From the sequence record MK373792.1: a DNA stretch of 64,000 nucleotides. One strand, written 5' to 3'. The translations under genes and the position numbers were made by a program. This document shows, piece after piece, positions 6,637 through 64,000 of this stretch (position 1 is its first letter; every line of letters starts with the position of its first letter). This stretch comes from Escherichia phage vB_EcoS_VAH1. The notes beneath the pieces are model-generated. The model was not told the DNA's origin, did not search any database, and saw only the letters and a program-made list of their open reading frames with translations.

Positions 6637-7126
6637 TTTCAAATTGCCCGTATATGCTTTACGGGCATTTGTATCAATTGAGCAAGAAGGTGATTATTCC
6701 GTAATTACAACAAGATATAATAAATATGTGCTAGATAACAGGAAGTTGCCTGGTACTTTTTCTCAACGTAGGCTTATTCTATTTGAGAAACGGAAAGAAT
6801 TACCATACAAGCTCTATCCTATTAGAGGTAGAATATCAATGTTGTCTCAATTAGTTGGGTCAAAGCGTAGCCAATTTATAGATTCTGATGGAAATCTTAT
6901 TAACTGGAAGAAAACTACGTTCTATGATGTTGTCACCTCTAAAGTTTTGCATTCAGCTAGAATTTATAACGGAAAATACCAATGCTATGTAGCTAAAGTT
7001 CCATATCCATTTGTATTATCCTATGTTCCAGCTTATATAAGCTATATTCTGGTAAATAATAGCCCTGTTATTTATCAAGTCCATCAAGAGGAGCCTGAAA
7101 TTCCTAGACTTAGAATAAAATTATGA
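6629..7126 (+). CDS. hypothetical protein
   Basis: ORF overlapping the polymerase stop; no recognisable motifs. Confidence 0.4.
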   Translation: MLNFKLPVYALRAFVSIEQEGDYSVITTRYNKYVLDNRKLPGTFSQRRLILFEKRKELPYKLYPIRGRISMLSQLVGSKRSQFIDSDGNLINWKKTTFYDVVTSKVLHSARIYNGKYQCYVAKVPYPFVLSYVPAYISYILVNNSPVIYQVHQEEPEIPRLRIKL

Positions 7127-7275
7127 AGGTTGTTATATCTAATAAAGCCTATTTCAAGCCCGATGATGAACTTTGGGATTATTGTAGTAAGCAAACCACT
7201 TATCACATAGAGACAATGACTAGTAAATACCCTATTATGTATAAGAATAGTGGTGTTGTTGCCCAAAGAGATTAA
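7123..7275 (+). CDS. N-terminal fragment of SF2 DNA helicase (frame 1 of 3)
   Basis: ATG at 7123; 50 codons ending just inside the start of the next helicase ORF in another frame. Confidence 0.4.
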   Translation: MKVVISNKAYFKPDDELWDYCSKQTTYHIETMTSKYPIMYKNSGVVAQRD

Positions 7276-7702
7276 GTGGATTCCTATTACGCGTCTGGAC
7301 TTATTAGATGCTAAAGGAATAAAATACGAATTAGTCGATAAACGCACATTAGCTCCAGTAGATATACCAAAACCTGAGTTCAAGCTGCGTGAAGAAGACC
7401 AGCTCCCAATATATAAAGAGTGTGATGATACCTGTATTATTAATGGTAAGCCTGGATTTGGTAAAACTATCCTAGCCCTTGCACTTGCGTATAAATTTGG
7501 CCAGAAAACTTTGGTAATCTGTACAAATACATCCATACGTGAAATGTGGGCGGCAGAAGTTCGTAAATGGTTTGGGTTTGAACCAGGCATCATAGGTTCT
7601 GGGAAGTACAATATTGATCCACCAATTGTAGTCAGCAATATTCAAACAGTAAATAAACATGCGAATAATCTTTCTAAAGTATTCGGTACTGTTTATAGTT
7701 GA
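7250..7702 (+). CDS. SF2 ATP-dependent DNA helicase, Walker A segment (frameshifted gene)
   Basis: Walker A GKPGFGKT. Ends ...KVFGTVYS* immediately before the helicase motif II in the next frame. Confidence 0.7.
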   Translation: MVLLPKEIKWIPITRLDLLDAKGIKYELVDKRTLAPVDIPKPEFKLREEDQLPIYKECDDTCIINGKPGFGKTILALALAYKFGQKTLVICTNTSIREMWAAEVRKWFGFEPGIIGSGKYNIDPPIVVSNIQTVNKHANNLSKVFGTVYS

Positions 7703-8477
7703 TGAAGTTCACCATTGTGTGGCTACAACTTTCACTAATTTCCTAGAAATATCATGTGCTCGCTATAAAATTGGACTATCCGGTACACTAAAACGAAAAG
7801 ATGGTTTACAAGTTATGTTCAAAGATTTCTTTGGATATAAGATATTTAGCCCGCCGGTTAATAATACTGTTGCACCTACAATCCATAGGTACTCCGTGCC
7901 TGTTGAGCTATCAGGAAACCAAAACGTGCCGTGGGCATTACGTGCTAACGATGTGTATAATCATCCTGAATATCGAGAGACTATTATAAACCTAGCACAT
8001 TTATATGTGAATATGGGGCATAAAGTACTCATTGTAAGTGATAGAACAGAGTTAATCCAAACAGTACTAGAAGCTCTTACGCAGCGGGGTGTTACAACAT
8101 ATGAAATTATAGGGGCAACCCACTTAGATGACCGATTAAAAATTCAGGAAGATATAGCAAAAGGTGGGCCTTGTGTACTTGCAGCAGCTCAAAGTATCTT
8201 CTCTGAAGGTATTTCTCTTAATGAGCTATCTTGTTTAATAATGGGAAGCCTCATTAATAATGAATCTCTCATTGAACAGCTTGCAGGCCGTGTTCAACGT
8301 ATTGTCGATGGTAAACTCGACCCTATTGTTGTAGATCTAATTATGAAAGGTGGCACTGGACTAAGACAGGCTTCTGGACGTATGGCAGTATATCGTAACA
8401 ACGGGTGGAAAACTATTACTATGACCCCGGAGAAAGCAGTTCAATTAGCTAAAATTGCATTTGGCAACAGCTCATAA
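7659..8477 (+). CDS. SF2 ATP-dependent DNA helicase, DExH and C-terminal domain (frameshifted gene)
   Basis: LFIVDEVHH (motif II), LSGTLKRKDG, and C-terminal helicase domain with QLAGRVQR. Confidence 0.7.
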   Translation: MRIIFLKYSVLFIVDEVHHCVATTFTNFLEISCARYKIGLSGTLKRKDGLQVMFKDFFGYKIFSPPVNNTVAPTIHRYSVPVELSGNQNVPWALRANDVYNHPEYRETIINLAHLYVNMGHKVLIVSDRTELIQTVLEALTQRGVTTYEIIGATHLDDRLKIQEDIAKGGPCVLAAAQSIFSEGISLNELSCLIMGSLINNESLIEQLAGRVQRIVDGKLDPIVVDLIMKGGTGLRQASGRMAVYRNNGWKTITMTPEKAVQLAKIAFGNSS

Positions 8478-8489: not shown

Positions 8490-8562
8490 ATATACATAAA
8501 TTTGAGAGAGAGAAAGTTTCGGATTGATAAGAAAGTCCGAAGCAGAAAAATAAAAATTTTAG

Positions 8563-9786: not shown

Positions 9787-10263
9787 ATGATTACACAAGA
9801 GCGATTAAAAGAGCTGTTAGATTATAATCCTGAGACTGGAGTATTTACCTGGAAAGTATCTCGTGGTAGAGTTTCAAAAGGATCTGTAGCTGGAACAGCA
9901 GTATCAGTAGGGAATAGGTACACCCGCTGGGAGATTCGAGTTGAAGGAAAAAGATATAAGGCGCATCAGTTAGCATTTCTATACGTTCATGGTTATATTC
10001 CACCTGAGATTGATCATGAAGATAGGAATCCATTGAATAATGCAATACTTAACCTAATAGACTCTTCAAAGTCTCGTAATCAATTAAATAAGAATAAAAA
10101 CTTCGGTAAAGAAACACCAAAAGGAGTCTTTGTAAAAGCCTCTACTGGAAGATACTTCGTACAGATTCAAGGAAAGCACTACGGCTACTTTGATGACGTA
10201 GAACAGGCCAGAACTGTTGCTAATGAGGTATATGATAGGTTGTTAAATGAGAATACTGTTTAG
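9787..10263 (+). CDS. HNH homing endonuclease (MITQERLKEL family)
   Basis: N-terminus MITQERLKELLDYNPETGVFTWKVSRG; HNH motif YKAHQLAFLYVHGYIPPEIDHEDRNPLNN. Confidence 0.8.
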   Translation: MITQERLKELLDYNPETGVFTWKVSRGRVSKGSVAGTAVSVGNRYTRWEIRVEGKRYKAHQLAFLYVHGYIPPEIDHEDRNPLNNAILNLIDSSKSRNQLNKNKNFGKETPKGVFVKASTGRYFVQIQGKHYGYFDDVEQARTVANEVYDRLLNENTV

Positions 10264-37327: not shown

Positions 37328-37840
37328 TTATTTACCGCGGGAAATAGAGTAAATTCCATAGCGCAGCGCATCACAAAGGTGAGAGTTAGCATCATGACGT
37401 GGTTTTTCACGTGATAATTTCTCTTCACCTTCTTGGAAATCCCACTTATAGTTCTGCAATGCATGGATTAGTGAGGAACATGAAGCATCTACAATAATCT
37501 TGCCCTGCTGGAATAGCGCTTGCAAGCATGCTAGACCATCTAGGACAGATTTTTTAGCTGGAGCTGATGCAATTTCGTGCTCGTAAGCTAAGTCCTGGCG
37601 GAACTGAGCGGCGGCAGAGTCAACAAAAATACGATCAACTTTATAACGATCTATACAGTGCTGAATATAAGCAGCATGCTGAGCTGTAGTTTTTTCAGCC
37701 TGCTGGTATTCTTCTAACACGTAGTAGGTATCCGTATCGTAATGATATTTAATAGTAAGAACTGCTGTAGGATCACGATAACCAACGTCAATACCAAGCA
37801 ACGTTTCGAATGCTTCATCATCTTTAAAGAAGTGACGCAT
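37328..37840 (-). CDS. terminase large subunit, C-terminal nuclease domain (frame open up to about 37941)
   Basis: Terminase nuclease region. The frame continues upstream as NYFRQEYEADFSVFEGQIFDTFNAIDHV... to a stop adjacent to the frameshift site. Confidence 0.8.
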   Translation of the reverse strand: MRHFFKDDEAFETLLGIDVGYRDPTAVLTIKYHYDTDTYYVLEEYQQAEKTTAQHAAYIQHCIDRYKVDRIFVDSAAAQFRQDLAYEHEIASAPAKKSVLDGLACLQALFQQGKIIVDASCSSLIHALQNYKWDFQEGEEKLSREKPRHDANSHLCDALRYGIYSISRGK

Positions 37841-38643
37841 ACCTTTGAGATCTTTAACATGATCAATAGCATTAAAGGTATCAAAGATCTGGCCTTCGAA
37901 TACAGAGAAGTCAGCCTCGTATTCTTGGCGGAAGTAGTTTTACTAACTGTACGACGTGCTTCCTCAATGTCATTCAGGTCAGCACGTGGGTTATCACGAT
38001 ATGTACCATGAATAGATACCCAGTTAGGCAACGTATCATCAAATCCGTAGGCGTAAAATTCTTTAAACCAGTTACCCCCACGAGGGGTGGAAATAAATAG
38101 AGCTTTAGAATTAGGTTTATCTAGAGTAGGACGCAGCTGAACCCTGAAGGCATCACCACCCACATCGGAAATTGCCGCCTCGTCAAAGATGATAAAATCA
38201 TATGAACGTCCAACTGCGGAGTCAGCCTGAGCCGCGGAAGCTAGTTTAAATAGAGAACCATTAGCTAACTCAATCTCTTTATCTTTAGCGTTTTCACGTT
38301 CGGTTTGTAGGCCATACTTCTTAATAAGACCACGAATCTGAGACCATCCGATATTGGCCAGTGAGTAGTTAGGGGCAACTACTAGCACCTTCACATTAGG
38401 TTCCAGCAATTTTAGGAACCCAAGTGTATACGCTATAAAAGATTTACCTACACGGCGTGATACACACGCCGTTACAAAACGATGTCTAGGGTCTTCTAGC
38501 GCATTGATAATTGCTATTTGAGGGCCGTTAGGTGTAATACCCTCTTGTGCTAGTATTCCGGAAACGGGTAAACGAAAGAAACGCTTATCTATTCCGAAAT
38601 CAATAACATCTACTGTATTAACATAAGGTCTTGATACTTCCAT
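37714..38643 (-). CDS. terminase large subunit, N-terminal ATPase domain (frameshifted gene)
   Basis: Walker A-like SRRVGKS and Walker B YDFIIFDEAA. After ...DIEEARRTVSK the frame turns into low-complexity garbage. Confidence 0.85.
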   Translation of the reverse strand: MEVSRPYVNTVDVIDFGIDKRFFRLPVSGILAQEGITPNGPQIAIINALEDPRHRFVTACVSRRVGKSFIAYTLGFLKLLEPNVKVLVVAPNYSLANIGWSQIRGLIKKYGLQTERENAKDKEIELANGSLFKLASAAQADSAVGRSYDFIIFDEAAISDVGGDAFRVQLRPTLDKPNSKALFISTPRGGNWFKEFYAYGFDDTLPNWVSIHGTYRDNPRADLNDIEEARRTVSKTTSAKNTRLTSLYSKARSLIPLMLLIMLKISKVCVTSLKMMKHSKRCLVLTLVIVILQQFLLLNIITIRIPTTC

Positions 38644-39125
38644 TACTTCTTACCTCCAGTAGCTAGGGAAGTGATTAAGTCCATGTAATTTTGATCCCCA
38701 GCTCCAGCAATAATGTTATTCTGGATATTGGTCTGATTAGCAGGAGCTCGGACGGCAGCTTTAGCTTTTTCTAGCTCTACCATCATCTTCATTTCTTCCA
38801 TCTTCATTTTGTGTGCTTTCCAGAGAATATCCATAATATCTTGGTCAGAACCCATGCCGGTTTCTTCCAGTTCCTCTAGTTTACGCTTGATAACTTCATC
38901 CAGAACACCAAATAAACGATCCCTATTACGGAAACCACTCTCCATAAAAATATCATTTAAGTAGTTCTTAACTTCACTACGATTCATAATATCTCGGAAA
39001 GCAATTTCGGACATTCCAAGACTACGTGCGGCAGAAGGCACATCGCTGCCACACTGTAAATAAGCTTCAATTACATCCATCCCTTCAGGGGACATAAGAT
39101 CTGGTACTAATACATCATTTGCCAT
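38643..39125 (-). CDS. putative terminase small subunit (HTH protein)
   Basis: 160-aa ORF immediately upstream of the terminase large subunit; HTH-like [19 protein letters not shown]. Confidence 0.5.
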
Positions 39126-39135
39126 ATTTCCTCCT

Positions 39136-40665
39136 TTAGGTAAGGCGTTGAACTGTTACTCTTAATCTAGGTAGGAAAACTGCGCTACCCAAACTCACGT
39201 GCATAACTACTCCTAACTCTACATTTCCATTTCCTAGATTTTTAACGGTATATATAAAACTGTTTCTACTAAGAGCATTGTTAGGTGTATATCTAAAAGC
39301 AGATGTAGTATGAAAAGGTACTAGATAACCCACAGGTAGCGTTAAAATCTGGTGGAATATTGCATCTCCATTACTATAACTATGCGCTTTTCTTCCTTGT
39401 ACTTGAAATACACCATTATTCCATGTATTAGCTGGAACACCCGCACAATTAAGATTACCTGATATAACTTCAGTAGTAAGAATTACGGTAGCATTTCCGC
39501 CTGGTATACCTAGCCCAATAGTTGATAAACCAACGTATCTATCCCCAGTTCCTGGATAGTGGGGTGTAATATCATCTCCCATATAAGAACTACCTACATT
39601 TCCACTAAAAAGTCGAAGTGGAACTGCTGATGGTCCCCAAACAATCCCATGTTCATTACCAATAGTATTATTATTTGAGTTTACATACCATTGTTTACCG
39701 GCCCCAAATTTATAAATACTAATTTGAGATTTAGCCCCTCCGTAATCTACAGGAGACCACAACCCTCCATTACTAGACCCTACAAGTTCACACCTTGCAG
39801 TGGTATCCCCAAAAACCCCAGTATACGCTGCGTTATTCCCTATATACTCCATATCAGGACGGTAACCTAGGTTACCAAAAGCATTCTGATTTATAAATTT
39901 ATACCCGGTATTAGGGAGACTTACCCCTTTAATTATGAAATTAGAAGGAGATATAAGAATATCAGAACCAGTAAAGGGATTGCCTGAAATACTCATACCT
40001 CCATTCGAGTACCTTAAATTAAGAACATACCAAATAACCTTAGTAGGAGTTATATTATACCAGTCCTGTATTACCGTAGGATTGCCAGACTGATTAGCCA
40101 AATTAGTAGTAGATCCCCTACAAACAAATCTGTTCCCACCGTCGTGGTACATAGTATTTACACTACCTGGGAGCCCTTGCCTAACCCCACCATACCCACG
40201 TATATTAGAATTACAAACATAAAACCAATCATGCCCTCTATGCGCTGCTCCTAGAGGTGACATCCATCCGGGATCCCAATAGTACGGGTTATTCCCATCT
40301 ACAGGTACTGTACTACTGTTAGTAGGAAACCCTAATTGTGCAAAAGCTTCTGCAACAGTAACACCTACAGGAGCTCCCGCACCGGGCCTAACTATACCAT
40401 GGTAGGTACTATGTAATGTAGTACCCCCTGTGCCACTCCTAGATATAGATTCTTCATGCCCTAGAGAGGGATTATAATTATAAGTTCCAGATGCTAGACT
40501 ATTACCAAAGGCAAATCCACTGGTTTGAGAAACACTAGCAAAAGATCTAAAGGGATCTGCCTGGGTGGCAACTATAGTTTGACCAACTTTACTCTGAGTA
40601 CCATTAAGAAAAGCTCTGTGAGTACCATTTATCTCAATAGCAGTTAGTAACTCTACCTGGGTCAT
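39136..40665 (-). CDS. receptor-binding tail protein (T5 pb5-like), C-terminal part
   Basis: 509-aa Gly/Asn/Thr/Ser-rich ORF next to a divergent llp-like lipoprotein gene; overlaps the preceding 85-aa ORF by 32 nt in another frame. Confidence 0.55.
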
Positions 40666-40891
40666 TAGATTTAATATTTATTATGTCAGAGGGCATTTGA
40701 CATACAAAAAACCCATTCCCGGCATTACCTAATGCAGCCTCATAAGTACCATCAACTAGGACAAATGGCATATCACTATGAAAAATACTATTGGCATTTG
40801 GACTATAGTGACGATTAATGTCACCACCAGATTCAGTATTTAAAGATAGTACGGTCTTACCATCGCTATATTTTCCAGCGAAAAAACCCAT
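40634..40891 (-). CDS. receptor-binding tail protein, N-terminal 85-aa fragment
   Basis: Strong RBS AGGAGA before the ATG at 40889-40891; ends in frame conflict with 39136..40665. Confidence 0.5.
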   Translation of the reverse strand: MGFFAGKYSDGKTVLSLNTESGGDINRHYSPNANSIFHSDMPFVLVDGTYEAALGNAGNGFFVCQMPSDIINIKSNDPGRVTNCY

Positions 40892-41846: not shown

Positions 41847-42057
41847 TATTATAATTGCTTTTATTATCGGGGTACTTGCGGGAATTTTCGGAATGACTGC
41901 GGCTATTAACAAGCATCGTAAGTATACTGCGGAAGTATCGCGGGAGATTGCGGAAAGGGAGCGGAAGTTTGACGAGAAACGTGCGGAGTTTGAGCGGGAG
42001 TGGAATGATGGTTCAAGAAGTTCTCGGAGGAGATTCAAGATAGATGGCAAATCATAA
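41839..42057 (+). CDS. small membrane protein (72 aa)
   Basis: N-terminal TM helix and a charged C-terminal tail. Confidence 0.5.
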   Translation: MFSIIIAFIIGVLAGIFGMTAAINKHRKYTAEVSREIAERERKFDEKRAEFEREWNDGSRSSRRRFKIDGKS

Positions 42058-42541
42058 ACCTCTACTTCCCTTAGCAGAATACCAGAAGAAATTTGATTAT
42101 GACCCTGAAACCGGTATGTTTACTTGGAATTCAGGGAGTCGTAAAGGTAAACCAGCAGGTAGTAGAAATAGTTCAGGAATATCCCTATCAATGGGTAGTA
42201 ATGGGCTATATAAGGCCCATCGGGTAGCGTATCTATACATGACAGGAGAAGACCCGGGTGAATTTCTCATTGATCACAAAGATCAAGACCCCTTCAACAA
42301 TAGGTGGAATAACTTACGTAAAGCAACAAATGCAGAGAATGGAAAAAACTCTTCGGGATGGAAGAATGAGTCTACAGGGGTTAAGGGAGTATATAAACGC
42401 GAGGAGGGAAAGTTCGAAGCAAAACTACGTGTAAATGGTAATAGAATTACCATAGGAACTTTTAAAACTCTTGAGCAGGCTGAAAAAGAACTTAGAAAAG
42501 CCAGGGAGCATTACCACGGTGAGTTTGCAAACCATAATTAA
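42044..42541 (+). CDS. HNH homing endonuclease
   Basis: PETGMFTWNSGSRKGKPAGS...YKAHRVAYLYMTGEDPGEFLIDHKDQDPFNNRWNNL; same family as 2199..2732 and 9787..10263. Confidence 0.8.
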   Translation: MANHKPLLPLAEYQKKFDYDPETGMFTWNSGSRKGKPAGSRNSSGISLSMGSNGLYKAHRVAYLYMTGEDPGEFLIDHKDQDPFNNRWNNLRKATNAENGKNSSGWKNESTGVKGVYKREEGKFEAKLRVNGNRITIGTFKTLEQAEKELRKAREHYHGEFANHN

Positions 42542-42716
42542 TTAGCGCTATTAACCTTTTTGCCAAATTCTTTGGATTACGTACGCGTGGGTGTGCTCAC
42601 TGCCACCGGCGAAAATACTTAGTCTGCTAACCGCCACCCCCGTTACTATTACCATGCTAACTGTTTCACCCTGCAACCATTTTAATTGCAAGGTGAAACA
42701 ATTTCAACTTTAATTA

Positions 42717-43451
42717 TTACGCAACTTTTAATTTCTCAATATACTGTTGCGGGCTGCAACTATATTCTGCGCGTTCTTCTTCAGTCATACCTTCCCAACA
42801 TAATTGCAAGCGATCGGCTAGGAACTGATAATCATTATCATCCTCAAGAGATTCGTCAATAAAGGTTTCACCTATCAATGTGACACCGATTGATAGAATA
42901 TCATTAACGGCTTGCGCGTCCAGCGTTTTAAATCCGTATGATGCCGCCGCTGCCAATACTCCCTTATGATCGTCGATCATCGTGAAATCAGCGTTCGGAT
43001 ATAGCTGTTTAAATAGCTCAAAGTAATGACTTTTATATATAGCGTCCTTACTGTGGTATATTTCGCTAACCTTATCAGCTTCAAAATATTTGTGAAGCGT
43101 ATCGCGGGAAAATACACGGATATTACTATTTCCACGCCCTCGCAGTCCTTGTTTGCGCAGGTAATAATAATCTGACTTGCTCATCAGTCGAGCGGTACAA
43201 ATAACGTTTAACGTGTTGGCGTCATTCATGCACTGGCGCATATATGTAACAAGCGGCAATAGTGTATCTTGCATTATTAAATCATGTTTGCAGGCTTCAT
43301 TTTTATACTTATTTAAATCTAAATTGCCCTCGCTATCAAAGCAAGGCGCTACGCGATGGAAAGAATTGATGATTGTTCCGTCCAGATCCCAAATCATGAC
43401 GCGGGAAATATGCGGGAAATTACGGGTAATATTCGTTTTAACTTGATTCAT
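42717..43451 (-). CDS. dmp: 5'-deoxyribonucleotidase, HAD-superfamily (T5 dmp-like)
   Basis: HAD motif I IWDLDGTI; 244 aa; adjacent to the A1/A2-like genes. Confidence 0.75.
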   Translation of the reverse strand: MNQVKTNITRNFPHISRVMIWDLDGTIINSFHRVAPCFDSEGNLDLNKYKNEACKHDLIMQDTLLPLVTYMRQCMNDANTLNVICTARLMSKSDYYYLRKQGLRGRGNSNIRVFSRDTLHKYFEADKVSEIYHSKDAIYKSHYFELFKQLYPNADFTMIDDHKGVLAAAASYGFKTLDAQAVNDILSIGVTLIGETFIDESLEDDNDYQFLADRLQLCWEGMTEEERAEYSCSPQQYIEKLKVA

Positions 43452-47715: not shown

Positions 47716-48234
47716 TTAATTGACAATTCCAAATTCAGCTTTTTTAGTTTCTACCCATAATAATAACTCTTGTAAATCATAACCTGATTTACTAACACTT
47801 TTGTTACTAGTAGGATCTTTAACTATAGCGCGCAAATAGTTTCTTCCGTTATTATCAACTCTAGAACCATTATAATAGATATGCTTAGGCAACTTATTAG
47901 CACGCTTATAATCTTTCTTGTTATTCATATTCTGCTTATGATCTACTAAGCGAAGATTATTAATGTTATTATTAGCACGGTTACGATCATTATGATCGAT
48001 TGTTAGATTGCTATCAATCTCACCATTAAATAATACCCATATTATTCTATGCACTGCGTATTGTTCGCCTGCTAACTTTACTCGATAGTAACCTGTGTTA
48101 CTATAATGCCCTGCAATATCACCCACCTTACTATTACCTTTCTGTACTTTCCACCTTAGAAATGATGGGGATGTTTCATCATAATAAAAGTTATCATTAG
48201 CAAGCGAATAATCTATATCTTTAAATAGACCCAT
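47716..48234 (-). CDS. HNH homing endonuclease
   Basis: YAVHRIIWVLFNGEIDSNLTIDHNDRNRANNNINNLRL HNH motif; AP2-like C-terminal domain. Confidence 0.75.
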   Translation of the reverse strand: MGLFKDIDYSLANDNFYYDETSPSFLRWKVQKGNSKVGDIAGHYSNTGYYRVKLAGEQYAVHRIIWVLFNGEIDSNLTIDHNDRNRANNNINNLRLVDHKQNMNNKKDYKRANKLPKHIYYNGSRVDNNGRNYLRAIVKDPTSNKSVSKSGYDLQELLLWVETKKAEFGIVN

Positions 48235-49777: not shown

Positions 49778-49897
49778 TAGTTAACCTAGTGTAAAGTTTT
49801 GTAAAGGTCGCCATAATCGGCGGCCTTTTTTGTTATAATGCCTTTACACCGTTCGAGGACGGTTGAAAATTTTCCCAAAAAATTTTGGAGGCTTAAA

Positions 49898-58612: not shown

Positions 58613-59148
58613 TTATTTAATTCCTCTAAAGTAGGTAAGGGTTTTGTATGATCAAAAGTTTCTATAACAGCGTTAGGCCCATGTAGTTCTAAACGTAGTT
58701 CATTAGCTCTTTGAACTGCCAACTCTAAATCTAGATACCTAAAGTAGCCTCCGTGTACTGTAATGCTTTCGGCGCTTCTGGCCTGGACTCTCCATTGTTG
58801 TCGATCTTTTTTCCAGGTAACTCCTAAGTATCCCCGAATTAGATTGAGCGATTCTGCTACGATTATTCTCTTGGGACGTACAATCTTTTAAATTACACCA
58901 TTATTATCTTTTCTTATATTATTTAAGTGGTGTACTAGATTTGGAATATACCCCTCCATGTACAAAAAAGCTAACCTATGGGCTGCATATCTTTTTCTAT
59001 TTATTCCAATAAATATATATAACCATCCTTATCAGGACTACCAGCAATACTACCTGCTTTACCTCGCCCTCTACTGACTTTCCTTATAAATTCGCCCGTT
59101 TCCGGGCGGTATTCAAATAGCTCTTTTAATCTTTCTTGTGTTATCATT
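58613..59148 (-). pseudogene. degenerate HNH homing endonuclease (MITQERLKEL family) with multiple frameshifts/stops
   Basis: Minus-strand translation from ATG 59146-59148 gives MITQERLKELFEYRPETGEFIRKVSRGRGKAGSIAGS... then a stop; HNH-like pieces (AHRLAFLYMEGYIPNLVHH, KDRQQWRVQ..., ...LELHGPNAV) continue in other frames. Confidence 0.6.
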
Positions 59149-59374
59149 TTTTCTTTAATTGCTTAACTTCACGCTCAAAGCTAGCCGCTCGTCGTTCTGC
59201 CACTGCTTGATGCTCCTTAGCAAAGCGTGCCTCTTGTTTTGCTAAGTTAAAGGCCATAGCGTTCTTGTTAAGAGAATCGTACATCTTCTTCATCGCCGGA
59301 ATAGACATTTTCATCAGTTGCCCCTCAAATCCTTGCATATCGAGGAGAATTGCCAGAACGTTAGCCATTTTCAT
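59144..59374 (-). CDS. hypothetical protein
   Basis: 76-aa ORF. Confidence 0.45.
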   Translation of the reverse strand: MKMANVLAILLDMQGFEGQLMKMSIPAMKKMYDSLNKNAMAFNLAKQEARFAKEHQAVAERRAASFEREVKQLKKK

Positions 59375-59471
59375 TTTTAGTCATGTTTTCCATTAGAATT
59401 TCCTCTCTCATTAATTTATGAACTTATTATACAGAATTTTAAGGCTTAAAGCAACTGAATTTTTTAATTAC

Positions 59472-59903
59472 TTACCAATCGTTAACAACACCAGAGAACT
59501 CAGAAGCAAAAACTTTTTCAAATTTTTCTGCAATTTCAGGATGATCTTTGCAGATCAGCTCAATGCATGCTTCTGGAGTCATTCCTTCATCTTCAGGATC
59601 ACCATAGTATTTATCCCAAAGATCATCGGGAATGATATGCTCTGCCAAATCTTGGAAAGAGATTAACTGATAACGTTCTGCCTCCTCAGCGATAAGAATT
59701 TCGCACAGATCTTTATCTATATCGCTACGATAATCCGCAATTAATAAGGCATTGCAAGCATGACATTCCCAGACCATCAAACGTTCAGAGATAGGATTAG
59801 ACTTATCCTGAACGTAAGACTGGAACAAGGTTCGGAAAGTTGCCTTAACTTGTTCAAACTTATCTGCTGCTGCGAAAACTAGAGCTTTATCAACTTTGTT
59901 CAT
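59472..59903 (-). CDS. hypothetical acidic protein
   Basis: 143-aa ORF. Confidence 0.5.
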   Translation of the reverse strand: MNKVDKALVFAAADKFEQVKATFRTLFQSYVQDKSNPISERLMVWECHACNALLIADYRSDIDKDLCEILIAEEAERYQLISFQDLAEHIIPDDLWDKYYGDPEDEGMTPEACIELICKDHPEIAEKFEKVFASEFSGVVNDW

Positions 59904-60070
59904 TTTGATTCCTTCTCATCAATTTATAAAGTAATTATACAGAAACTTAAGCATTTTAGCAAATAAAACTTTCAATTAAAATGCCTAATCCTGTGCCAAT
60001 AGCAATACAAATGATTATAAGTATTGCTATCGCTTGTATGCTTCGTTTAATAATAGCCTCAGCTATATAC

Positions 60071-60665
60071 TTAGACATTTATATCGCCACGTAATACAGC
60101 AGCTACATCTTCCCCTATTTGTAATACTTCGCCAGTAGTACAATTAACTACTCTATCATAGCTAGTAAACTTACCAGACACAATATCCTCTAGTGGAATT
60201 GGAGTTTTACTCATTTCAAATGAGACATTAATATAACGTGGATCACGTAAAGAAGTAGTATGTACATGTCCGTGAATATTTAGTTTTTGCCACGAAGTTC
60301 ATTAGGGTGCAAAGGGCAGTGAGATAGCCAAAACTTTTTGCCACCTCCAGTCTGTTTGCCTAGAGCTTGAATATCGTCATAAACTTCCGCTAAGTCCCTA
60401 ATACTCAGTCCTTGACGCTCCGCATCATGATTACCCATAATGAGTTGATTAGGGACATTGGATAAACCGACTTTAATTTGGCCAGACCTTCACGACCTAC
60501 TGCAATATCTCCTAGCAAAATAAGTTTTGTTCGTTTACCAATATGCTTGGATAAAGTATCTAGAATATACTCATCGTGCTCTTTCATGTTCTTAAACCAC
60601 GGACGGAAACGTAGTGCTCCGGGGTGGTCTAAGTGCAAGTCTGACCAGAATTTAACCTTCATCAC
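60071..60665 (-). CDS. calcineurin-like metallophosphoesterase, interrupted by two apparent frameshifts
   Basis: Frame 1 (60405..60665) has SDLHLDH...LLGDIAVGREG; frame 2 has MGNHDAERQGL; frame 3 has IHGHVHTTS... running to the stop at 60071-60073. Confidence 0.65.
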
Positions 60666-60682
60666 TTACTCCTTTTTTTGTA

Positions 60683-60952
60683 TTAAATTATATCAACCCA
60701 GGTAGTTAATACTCTAGTTTTAAACTCCTCGGGAGTCTCTCCTTCCTTAAGGTCTACCTCATTAAGGTAGGTAGTAAGCCTTGTTTCTATCTCTATTTCA
60801 GCAGGAGAATTAAAACAAAAATTGACTGCTATTCCAGAATATATTACTCCGGTATCTCCTTTGACGAAAGCATTAACTAATGCTCTCCAACGAAGGGCAT
60901 CAATACGCATTGCTCGTAATTCTTCTTGTACTTCTTTCATTCTATCATTCAT
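60683..60952 (-). CDS. hypothetical protein
   Basis: 89-aa ORF. Confidence 0.45.
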   Translation of the reverse strand: MNDRMKEVQEELRAMRIDALRWRALVNAFVKGDTGVIYSGIAVNFCFNSPAEIEIETRLTTYLNEVDLKEGETPEEFKTRVLTTWVDII

Positions 60953-61022
60953 TAAAGAATCCTCTGTACACCACAGCTATCTTCGAAGCGTGGTAAATGT
61001 TGTGATTTTCCCAGTTTCATCA

Positions 61023-61826
61023 TTAACTTGCGCAACCGTCAACTGCCCGTTGAAAAACACCGCCAGTATCAAGATAAACACGGTTCTGGTATAAAATCGG
61101 GTAAGGTACTCCAGTATGCCCGTGAAACACGAAATCTACCCCTTTAACTTCTGGCACTTCTACCATGTATTTCTCTTTAAACCCTGCATAACGCTGGAAA
61201 TATGAGTGTTCTTCACCATTTTTAGATAAGTGAAAACCTATTTCTTGGATTACATCTCGATCCCATAAGTATGGTTCAACATGGTATCCAGGATGGTCAT
61301 GTGTGGGTCTTCCTTAGATGCTTCTACTTGTGCAATAAGGTTATCCCATACTGGGGTTTCTACTTCGTTACCACATTCTTTGTACGTAAAAGGTACACCA
61401 CCATGAACAACACCATACTTTTTACCACGATGCAATACAGTCAGAAATACTGGCATTTTTTCAGCCATGTCTTCAGCAATATTTTTAATGGTATCTGCAT
61501 CTAGTTCATTCATAGCCCACATACCACCATTATACATCCAGTTAGCCCAATCTCCCACAATCATAAATTGGTCATGATTACCTCGGACACTGATAAAGCG
61601 TGGATTATACAGGAATTTGGAAAACTTGTAGGTTCTGCGTGCCTCGATCAATTAAATCTCCCACGCATACAACACAATCTTTCTTGCCGTTATAGCCAGC
61701 TAATTGTAGTGCATCTTCTAGTAAATCGTTACATCCATGAATATCACCAACGAAAAACAAGTTGGCGTCATCCGGCACTACTAGAGTTTTATGTACATTA
61801 AATTCTTTTTTCATAATTATTCCCAA
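61023..61826 (-). CDS. Ser/Thr protein phosphatase (PPP family, lambda-PPase-like), interrupted by two apparent frameshifts
   Basis: GDIHGC and GDLIDRG in 61605..61826; GNHD and VVHGG in 61250..61651; FVFHGHT in a third frame ending at about 61023. Confidence 0.7.
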
Positions 61827-62155
61827 ATAACAGTTAAAATAGTTGTGCCATAATCATTAGATAGCTGGAGAGTATAACCCTCTTTATAGAGGGCTTTTAT
61901 AGCTTCATAACTAATTTCATCACGATTAAACTGTACAAAACCCCCAATCTCCACAGAAGAAACTATTCTCTTTTAACATACTTATATGGTTTCTTTCTGC
62001 TCTTGAGAAGAGCAGCTCTATTAACTCTAGCTAAATGTTTTGCTTGCTCTGCTAACATTTAATCCTCCTATCAATCTATATAAATAGTATACCAAAATTT
62101 TTAGCAAAAAGCAAGTAAAATAAAAGCCTGATCCGCTAAGATCAGGCTTGGTTTA

Positions 62156-62455
62156 TTAATCCTCTGGATTATCGTCTAGGAAATTTTTAATAGCTTCGTG
62201 CATAGTTTCTTTACGAAGCTGACGTCCAACCAAAATATGATTAGCTTCTACTCGACCATTAGGTAAGCGATCCGCTAGAACTACTACAGGAACAGCTCTT
62301 ACTCCGAACTTCTGCATTAATTCTGTATTATCAGTCTCTTTGTGGACTTCCAAATTATAGTCATTGACTACTTTATCAAATACTACTGGCTCGAAAAGAG
62401 CACAAGGACGACACGTGGAACCTTTTAATAAATAAATAACTTTGCTCATATACAC
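62156..62455 (-). CDS. glutaredoxin/thioredoxin-fold protein (NrdH-like)
   Basis: CxxC motif CRPC near the N-terminus; about 95 aa. Confidence 0.6.
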   Translation of the reverse strand: MYMSKVIYLLKGSTCRPCALFEPVVFDKVVNDYNLEVHKETDNTELMQKFGVRAVPVVVLADRLPNGRVEANHILVGRQLRKETMHEAIKNFLDDNPED

Positions 62456-62560
62456 TCCTATTTTACTTGTTAAGCTCTTCTAAATCTGGTATATATCCAA
62501 GAAACTCCTCAATTAAAGCGTACTCCCCAGCAATCTCCTGTCTAGACTTATTCGCTAAGT

Positions 62561-62996
62561 CTACTGCAGAGCTAAGTCTTCATAATTGAAGATTCCTTTC
62601 ATACGTTTTCGGCCTGTTTCATCCGTAATTTGAACTCTCCATTTCTGCCTATCTTTAGCCCACATAACATTTGCATATCCGGATTTGGATTTTATGCTTT
62701 TATTACGACAATTTTGTGGTTTAGATGCAGAACGTAAATTTTTCCATCGGTTATTTTGTGGATTTCTATCTATGTGATCCACAAATTCAGGTATATATCC
62801 TTCCATATATATAGGCCCATCTATGGGCTCCCTGCCTCTCCCCTTCCCACCATTATCATTATGTAATCATTGTTGTACAGGGTTCCAGCTTCCATTCCCC
62901 TCTTTACATACTGATTATTACCATCTATCTTCCAGGTAAACACACCCGTTTCCGGGTTATAATCTAGTAATTCCTTTAATCTTTCTTGTGTTATCA
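62561..62996 (-). CDS. HNH homing endonuclease (MITQERLKEL family), apparently frameshifted
   Basis: GTG start at 62994-62996 gives VITQERLKELLDYNPETGVFTWKIDG... then a stop; the C-terminal HNH part YMEGYIPEFVDHIDRNPQNNRWKNL... is in another frame (62561..62806). Confidence 0.6.
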
Positions 62997-63003
62997 CAAT
63001 TTA

Positions 63004-63210
63004 TTAATGGCCTCCAAGAAGTTTTTTCATGCACCTAACAGTTGCAGTGCTGAGATCTAGAGTAGTTCCTAAACATTCTGTTAATGCTGCCTGGTAAGGC
63101 GCTTTTAAACGCCCTTCAGGGACTTCTACCTTTTTGTAGGTTTTATTCTTTACTTTATCCAACATAGCTTCAAGAACATTGAGAGGCAATTTCGCACCCT
63201 CAATATTCAC
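63004..63210 (-). CDS. hypothetical small protein
   Basis: 68-aa ORF with GTG/ATG start overlapping the upstream stop by 11 nt. Confidence 0.4.
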   Translation of the reverse strand: MNIEGAKLPLNVLEAMLDKVKNKTYKKVEVPEGRLKAPYQAALTECLGTTLDLSTATVRCMKKLLGGH

Positions 63211-63397
63211 ACCACATTTCGGTCAGCATGTTATTAAGATCAATACGAGTAAGTTTCTTGCCTTTAGACATAGTAGTTCCTGCCCTCTTCTCAAGTTTTT
63301 TACGCTCTGGTGAATCGAGGTCACGTAATGCGATGTTCAACTCATATGGAGCCATGTTATAATGTTCCGCCATTTGAGTGTAGAAACGATCAGACAT
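63200..63397 (-). CDS. hypothetical small protein
   Basis: 65-aa ORF. Confidence 0.4.
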   Translation of the reverse strand: MSDRFYTQMAEHYNMAPYELNIALRDLDSPERKKLEKRAGTTMSKGKKLTRIDLNNMLTEMWCEY

Positions 63398-63472
63398 AAT
63401 ATATACCTCTCTTAACTAATTTATGTATATATTATATAATAACTAGGGCTAAAAGTCAACTACTTTTTTATC

Positions 63473-63889
63473 TTAATCTACTACATGTATAAATCTTTTT
63501 CTAACTAGATACATAGTTATTGGGTAAATTGAGTACATAAGTATCGGGGAGAAAAGGGTGAAATACGCTGTAACTCCCCCAGCTAACATCAAAGGTATTA
63601 ATGCTAGAGTAAGGGCCATAAGAATCATACCGAATGAAACAGCCAAAGCTATGGATATAGGATTCTCTAGTTCCATCCATAACCAACAATATTTCGTATC
63701 TCTATGGCAATTGCATTTACAAACGCCGAATGAACCCATAATTATATACTCTAGTCCGTGAATAACCTTTATTAATAAGCTATTTCGGGTAGTTAATGCA
63801 ATGATAGTAAAGACTATCATTAAAACGAATACTACTAGACTTATTTTCCAGATACCTAGCAGCATCATAGTGAATAGTTCTGCAAACAT
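63473..63889 (-). CDS. integral membrane protein
   Basis: 138 aa with about four hydrophobic helices. Confidence 0.5.
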   Translation of the reverse strand: MFAELFTMMLLGIWKISLVVFVLMIVFTIIALTTRNSLLIKVIHGLEYIIMGSFGVCKCNCHRDTKYCWLWMELENPISIALAVSFGMILMALTLALIPLMLAGGVTAYFTLFSPILMYSIYPITMYLVRKRFIHVVD

Positions 63890-64000
63890 GGCTTTCTCCT
63901 ATCTTCAAAAATTTATTAAAGCCCCCTTTGCCTAAAAAGGCGGGAATATTCCCGCCTAAGTTATTAATTAAACTAGTTCGACATGACCGCCATCATAGGT

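Follow-up and report, generated by a model that had tools for sequence, protein, structure and literature searches.

The split terminase gene of a T5-like phage sequence is very probably one of many consensus indel errors

The gene for the terminase large subunit (TerL) of Escherichia phage vB_EcoS_VAH1 is written as two pieces, with the packaging ATPase and the nuclease in different reading frames. Does the phage have a split or recoded terminase, has the gene become a pseudogene, or is a whole gene broken only on paper? The question was addressed in a window of 64,000 nucleotides from sequence record MK373792.1, a segment of a T5-like siphophage genome (Tequintavirus, Demerecviridae). Over 25 kb, the nearest records were ~88-93% identical. 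In a megablast search of GenBank phages, the terminase region matched 446 records, the top ones at 96-97% identity and none at 99% or above, and megablast yielded no GenBank phage above 97%; the top matches were Salmonella phages GEC_vB_N3, N5, and N7 and Escherichia phages chee24 and Bf23.

The terminase gene as written and after repair

The minus-strand gene order, namely receptor-binding protein (RBP), TerS (39125..38643), TerL, nicking endonuclease, and portal, matched that of Bf23 and GEC_vB_N3, and the order from TerS to the portal was also found in 10 public contigs. The TerL start ATG (38643) overlaps the TerS stop, the same arrangement as in the relatives, where a gene of 1317 nt annotated as "terminase large subunit" occupies the syntenic position. 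Within the gene (Table 1), the 309-aa open reading frame (ORF) matched Terminase_6N (PF03237, packaging ATPase) at residues 62-236 (E=1.1e-11; 45.2 bits, with a Pfam cut-off of 22 bits), and the downstream frame matched Terminase_6C (PF17289, RNaseH-like nuclease) at residues 49-196 (E=4.8e-12; 46.6 bits, with a cut-off of 22.6 bits). By the ORF listing and its translation, the 309-aa product is genuine TerL up to ...EEARRTVSK and continues as an unrelated tail (TTSAKNTRLTS...). The nuclease frame starts with NYFRQEYEADF... directly after a TAA at 37942..37940 and, from 37939 to 37328, reads NYFRQEYEADFSVFEGQIFDTF... through to the normal C-terminus. Read in the coding direction, the junction is AGT AAAA CT ACT, its four As lying at 37941..37938. 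A sequence-only reading had placed the split at the T-run at 37938-37941, with the ATPase and nuclease domains intact in different frames; the ORFs, the Pfam matches, and the alignment showed these coordinates to be exact.

Table 1. Coordinates of the features discussed, with the differences from relatives that affect them
Feature	Position	Strand	Remark
TerL gene	37328..38643	minus	1316 nt as written; 1317 nt (438 codons) in relatives, hence 1 base short
ORF with ATPase domain	37714..38643	minus	309 aa: residues 1-237 genuine TerL, then an out-of-frame tail of ~72 aa
Frame with hinge and RNaseH-like nuclease domain	37328..37939	minus	203 codons, open directly after the A-run
A4 run, frame-switch point	37938..37941	minus	T4 on the plus strand; A5 in relatives (AAA AAC = Lys-Asn)
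D10 DNA helicase gene	7123..8477	plus	two +1 insertions
RBP (pb5/Oad) gene	39136..40891	minus	2-nt deletion, TATA to TA, at ~40648
Early-gene region	59020..63934		~16 indels of 1-2 nt, length not a multiple of 3
Insertions, 59-64 kb	59020 (+TA), 59371 (+T), 60284 (+TT), 60464 (+A), 60673 (+T), 60689 (+TA), 61053 (+A), 61300 (+TG), 63027 (+T), 63912 (+T), 63934 (+A)		
Deletions, 59-64 kb	60459 (-TG), 60982 (-2), 61621 (-CT), 61969 (-1), 63214 (-2)		
HNH_3 (PF13392) ORF	2199-2732	plus	intact, between conserved genes
HNH_3 (PF13392) ORF	9787-10263	plus	intact, between conserved genes
HNH_3 (PF13392) ORF	42044-42541	plus	intact, between conserved genes
HNH_3 (PF13392) ORF	47716-48234	minus	intact, between conserved genes

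The missing base could be located by alignment to the TerL genes of relatives: one A is absent from an A5 run at 37941..37938. A 1601-nt terminase query aligned to 1602 nt in the best records by megablast, and nucleotide alignment placed the single gap in the run, which on the plus strand is T4 in the window versus T5 in relatives. All 26 related loci aligned had T5 on that strand. The contrast is fixed in the sequences themselves and does not rest on statistics. A flank pattern permitting either four or five As was run on IMG/VR, GTDB genomes, and JGI/ENA metagenomes. The A5 allele, in its 26-nt form, was present in each of the contigs matching the flanks (9/9 from IMG/VR and 4/4 from metagenomes) and A4 in none of them; the GTDB genomes held no match to the TerL flank pattern with four or five As. 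Likewise, a 71-mer centred on the A-run had no gap-free full-length match in GenBank phages, and its best full-length match among 107 GenBank phage records, at 98.6%, differed by the one gap. The identical TerS was encoded by 10 public contigs, and an intact 438-aa TerL adjoined it in every one. Complete E. coli genomes and PLSDB plasmids held no match, and exact-protein searches with the 309-aa frameshift product and with the portal protein gave no hit.

Insertion of one A produced a 1317-nt ORF of 438 codons, and Terminase_6N and Terminase_6C, which do not share a continuous frame as written, did so once that base had been added. Compared with the Tequintavirus TerL genes of Bf23 (WLW40757.1) and GEC_vB_N3 (YP_011815939.1), the VAH1 gene has the same TerS-adjacent place and stop/start overlap, and its DNA is 96-97% identical; after the 1-nt repair it encodes the same 438 amino acids, with 100% protein identity, and as written, without one A of the A5 run, it falls into two ORFs. 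Domain content (Terminase_6N plus Terminase_6C), synteny, and sequence all identify it as an ordinary Tequintavirus TerL, of the T4-type Terminase_6 family; the one hallmark that it lacks, an unbroken frame, comes back with the 1-nt repair. Insertion of an intein, an intron, or a homing endonuclease into the gene was rejected, as its length departs from that in relatives by exactly 1 nt.

Selection on the displaced frame and the unlikely options of recoding or a functional split

Repaired TerL showed no amino acid differences from the proteins of GEC_vB_N3, Bf23, L022, and L027, at 42-73 nucleotide differences (42-51 for GEC_vB_N3 and Bf23), and one or two amino acid differences from those of seven other relatives. 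The repaired DNA differed at 42-87 sites, of which 39-84 fell at codon position 3, 2-7 at position 1, and none at position 2, and this position-2-free pattern was seen on both sides of the break. Codon-position comparison with relatives gave no sign of relaxed selection in TerL on either side. Because amino acid differences are lacking despite 42-51 nucleotide differences, none of them at position 2, the whole TerL frame, including the displaced nuclease part, has been under strict purifying selection to the tip of the lineage. Selection of such strictness excludes a pseudogene of any age, so that the break must be either an artefact or a very recent lesion. The earlier view of the break as a homopolymer sequencing or assembly indel thus finds support in the A5 run of all relatives examined and in the identity of the repaired protein, and its ranking of a pseudogene or programmed slippage as far less likely agrees with the synonymous differences on both sides of the break.

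Could the two frames nevertheless be joined during expression? If the ribosome shifted by -1, or transcription slipped, at the A-run or beyond it, the TerL frame would be restored. The shift needed is indeed -1, and in tailed phages the programmed frameshifting of the tail assembly chaperone G/GT likewise uses a -1 shift to connect two frames that overlap. Unlike G/GT, the TerL junction has no slippery heptamer, no stimulatory structure, and no conservation in relatives. Read as AGT AAA ACT, the junction lacks an X XXY YYZ heptamer; a -1 slip of tRNA-Lys at the A-run would pair with UAA, and the +1 direction, in which re-pairing is perfect, leads to the wrong frame. At 37828..37822 (minus strand), T TTA AAG does look like a canonical heptamer; by chance it fits the -1 register when the shifted frame is read, whereas the native frame does not bring it into register. 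By a rough estimate, chance alone would place ~0.3 heptamers of this kind in 75 codons. It sits 38 codons downstream, and its use would turn ~38 conserved residues into junk. Folding of the RNA downstream of this heptamer revealed no stimulatory structure (MFE of -15 kcal/mol versus a shuffle mean of -16.9, z=+0.63). Known transcriptional slippage sites are much longer than four As, and slippage of this kind at TerL was rejected on the 4-nt length of the run. With the extra base, the frame runs straight through the site in all aligned relatives, and wherever genes are called or annotated TerL is one ORF of 438 codons, so recoding is not a family trait. The literature searched contained no account of recoding in a T5-like terminase, and we know of none in the terminase gene family. 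Recoding would moreover leave the +1, +1, -2, and further breaks in other genes (described below) unexplained, and we give it almost no credence.

A natural split terminase, in which an ATPase (the 309-aa ORF) and a nuclease (a 170-aa ORF with its ATG at 37840) are made as two polypeptides that assemble, would account for the fact that each domain is intact by Pfam. It could also draw on the in-frame ATG (Met, 37840) ahead of the nuclease core, which has a weak AAGG upstream. In the repaired 438-aa protein, that ATG simply encodes one of the internal Met residues, and a start there would lose the 33 conserved residues from the A-run to the ATG (NYFRQEYEADF...), which are under purifying selection with no amino acid changes. 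No relative has a split TerL, and the breaks in other genes point to a common trivial cause. The chance that VAH1 assembles its terminase from two such polypeptides is, in our estimate, vanishingly small.

Frame breaks elsewhere in the window

A raw list of blastn gaps against divergent relatives proved too noisy. Its place was taken by a tblastn test and, region by region, by nucleotide alignments with the closest relative. In the test, every non-shadow stop-to-stop ORF from GEC_vB_N3 and from Bf23 was translated and searched against the window by tblastn, and a break was called where adjacent high-identity HSPs lay in different frames. As a control, the same test was applied to these two high-quality relatives against each other, in both directions, and left all large conserved coding sequences unbroken; this pair showed breaks only in short ORFs or in the upstream, probably non-coding ends of stop-to-stop ORFs.

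Two large genes besides TerL were broken outside the early region. The D10 helicase gene carries an extra C at 7262-7264 (CC to CCC) and an extra T at 7692-7694 (TT to TTT), the second of which splits the ResIII domain between two ORFs. Unrepaired, D10 stops at codon 50; with both extra bases removed, a 450-aa ORF results that is identical to Bf23 D10 at 446 of its 450 residues (99%). In the RBP gene, re-insertion of TA restored a 585-aa ORF (557/585 residues, or 95%, identical to the RBP of GEC_vB_N3). Elsewhere, the tblastn test found two to three breaks in the phosphoesterase gene, four in the Ser/Thr phosphatase gene, and others in several small early genes. Two more differences, of the slippage type seen in the coding indels, appear to lie outside the main genes: a (GA)n tract at 8504 is longer by 2 nt than in relatives, and at 49882, upstream of an ATG, A5T3 has become A6T4.

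The indels were spread very unevenly. Between 59 and 64 kb, where they were scored mainly against NBEco001 (the closest relative there, at 94% identity) and also against Bf23 and GEC_vB_N3, their density was ~3 per kb, versus ~0.1 per kb elsewhere. Only four indels in this stretch had a length that is a multiple of 3, and the genes broken were those for the phosphoesterase and the Ser/Thr phosphatase, an HNH gene, and hypothetical genes. In the tail and head module at 15-37 kb, no indel was detected and every large ORF was intact.

Nearly all of the indels fell in short homopolymers or dinucleotide repeats. Each of the 13 insertions copied the adjacent base or dinucleotide, and most deletions shortened a short repeat by a single unit. 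About half of the indels were 2 nt long, and several lay in runs of just 2-3 bases. This spectrum is that of slippage-type or base-caller-type error. It differs from the textbook 454/Ion Torrent error in long homopolymers by its many 2-nt events and very short runs, which is a point against the reading as consensus error. Thus, the source may be the base-caller, the consensus step, or amplification.

Origin of the indels and use of the record

Because ~20 other slippage-type indels break other essential genes in the window, an error-prone consensus is by far the simplest explanation for the state of TerL, and the earlier view of the break as an indel error extends to the window as a whole. With TerL, D10, and RBP all broken, the phage could not package, replicate, or adsorb, yet these genes are otherwise conserved, which argues for consensus error. 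We regard it as very probable that the TerL split is a consensus indel error, one of many in the window, and the split is almost certainly not a real biological feature. For the indels in general, we infer that they arose during sequencing or assembly and not in the DNA itself. The consensus of a T5-like phage would have come to carry many small slippage-type indels during base-calling, consensus building, or assembly, and one such error would have shortened the A5 run in TerL codons Lys237-Asn238 by one A. The ATPase and nuclease domains would then stand in different frames on paper, the TerL of the real phage being most likely a normal, continuous 438 codons.

T5-like GenBank entries include many with sequencing or assembly errors (bioRxiv 10.1101/866236). 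Two unannotated T5-like records, MG969412.1 and MG969413.1, aligned over only 1597 and 1572 nt of the 1601-nt terminase region, which suggests that they also hold multiple indels. The VAH1 sequence resembles these draft phage records in having isolated 1-2 nt indels in short runs, within conserved genes, that are absent from relatives. It is unlike typical draft-record errors in that many of its events are 2-nt changes in very short runs and their density is strongly regional. This regional density counts against the reading as consensus error to the extent that something more must then be assumed, for instance low coverage or a lack of polishing in that stretch; the uneven density itself suggests that the sequence at 59-64 kb was poorly covered or left unpolished.

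Alternatively, the mutations may have been present in the DNA that was sequenced, coming from a defective genome or from a mixed, unselected population, with TerL and the other broken genes as very recent pseudogenes. Variants of this explanation include a non-viable form carried by a co-infecting wild type, amplified DNA with polymerase slippage, and a mutagenised stock. Replication or amplification errors also give slippage-type indels in short repeats, and an error in the molecule and an error in its reading look alike in a consensus sequence. Against this, the substitutions relative to relatives are only synonymous, so that all of the lesions would need to be extremely recent, and they would have to stand without nonsense or missense decay, the repaired proteins being 95-100% identical to those of relatives. 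The shorter TerL allele was found in none of the public contigs and records checked at the TerL site. A T5-type phage without TerL, the D10 helicase, and the receptor-binding protein together could not propagate. Real mutation is in our judgement unlikely, and mutations in a defective or amplified template would equally be an artefact as regards phage biology. Still more doubtful, and by a wide measure, is that A4 and the other indels are real in packaged DNA, whether in a helper-dependent, defective or satellite-like T5 derivative or with a terminase made from two ORFs. If the frameshifts were real, VAH1 would be an unprecedented, multiply defective T5-like genome, for which nothing here provides support.

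On the preferred reading of the indels as consensus errors, the window should be treated in quality control as an error-prone consensus. Unpolished gene calls will be wrong, as split or truncated genes, for TerL, the D10 helicase, the receptor-binding protein, and most of the early region at 59-64 kb, and other odd findings of frameshifts, pseudogenes, or split genes from this window should be discounted on the same grounds.

Several other features were noted along the window. The four intact HNH_3 ORFs (Table 1) are probably homing endonucleases. The one at 2199-2732 sits at an interruption in the alignment with GEC_vB_N3 and, compared with that phage, looks inserted. Two more HNH-like frames, at ~58615-59159 and 62573-62994, are frame-broken. 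At ~42170-42720, the late region, which holds the genes for the RBP and the receptor-blocking protein, runs straight into dmp/A1/A2, the genes that T5 carries in its left terminal repeat. A single copy of the terminal repeat aligned in the window, where the ~10-kb repeat is collapsed, as in a circular-style assembly.
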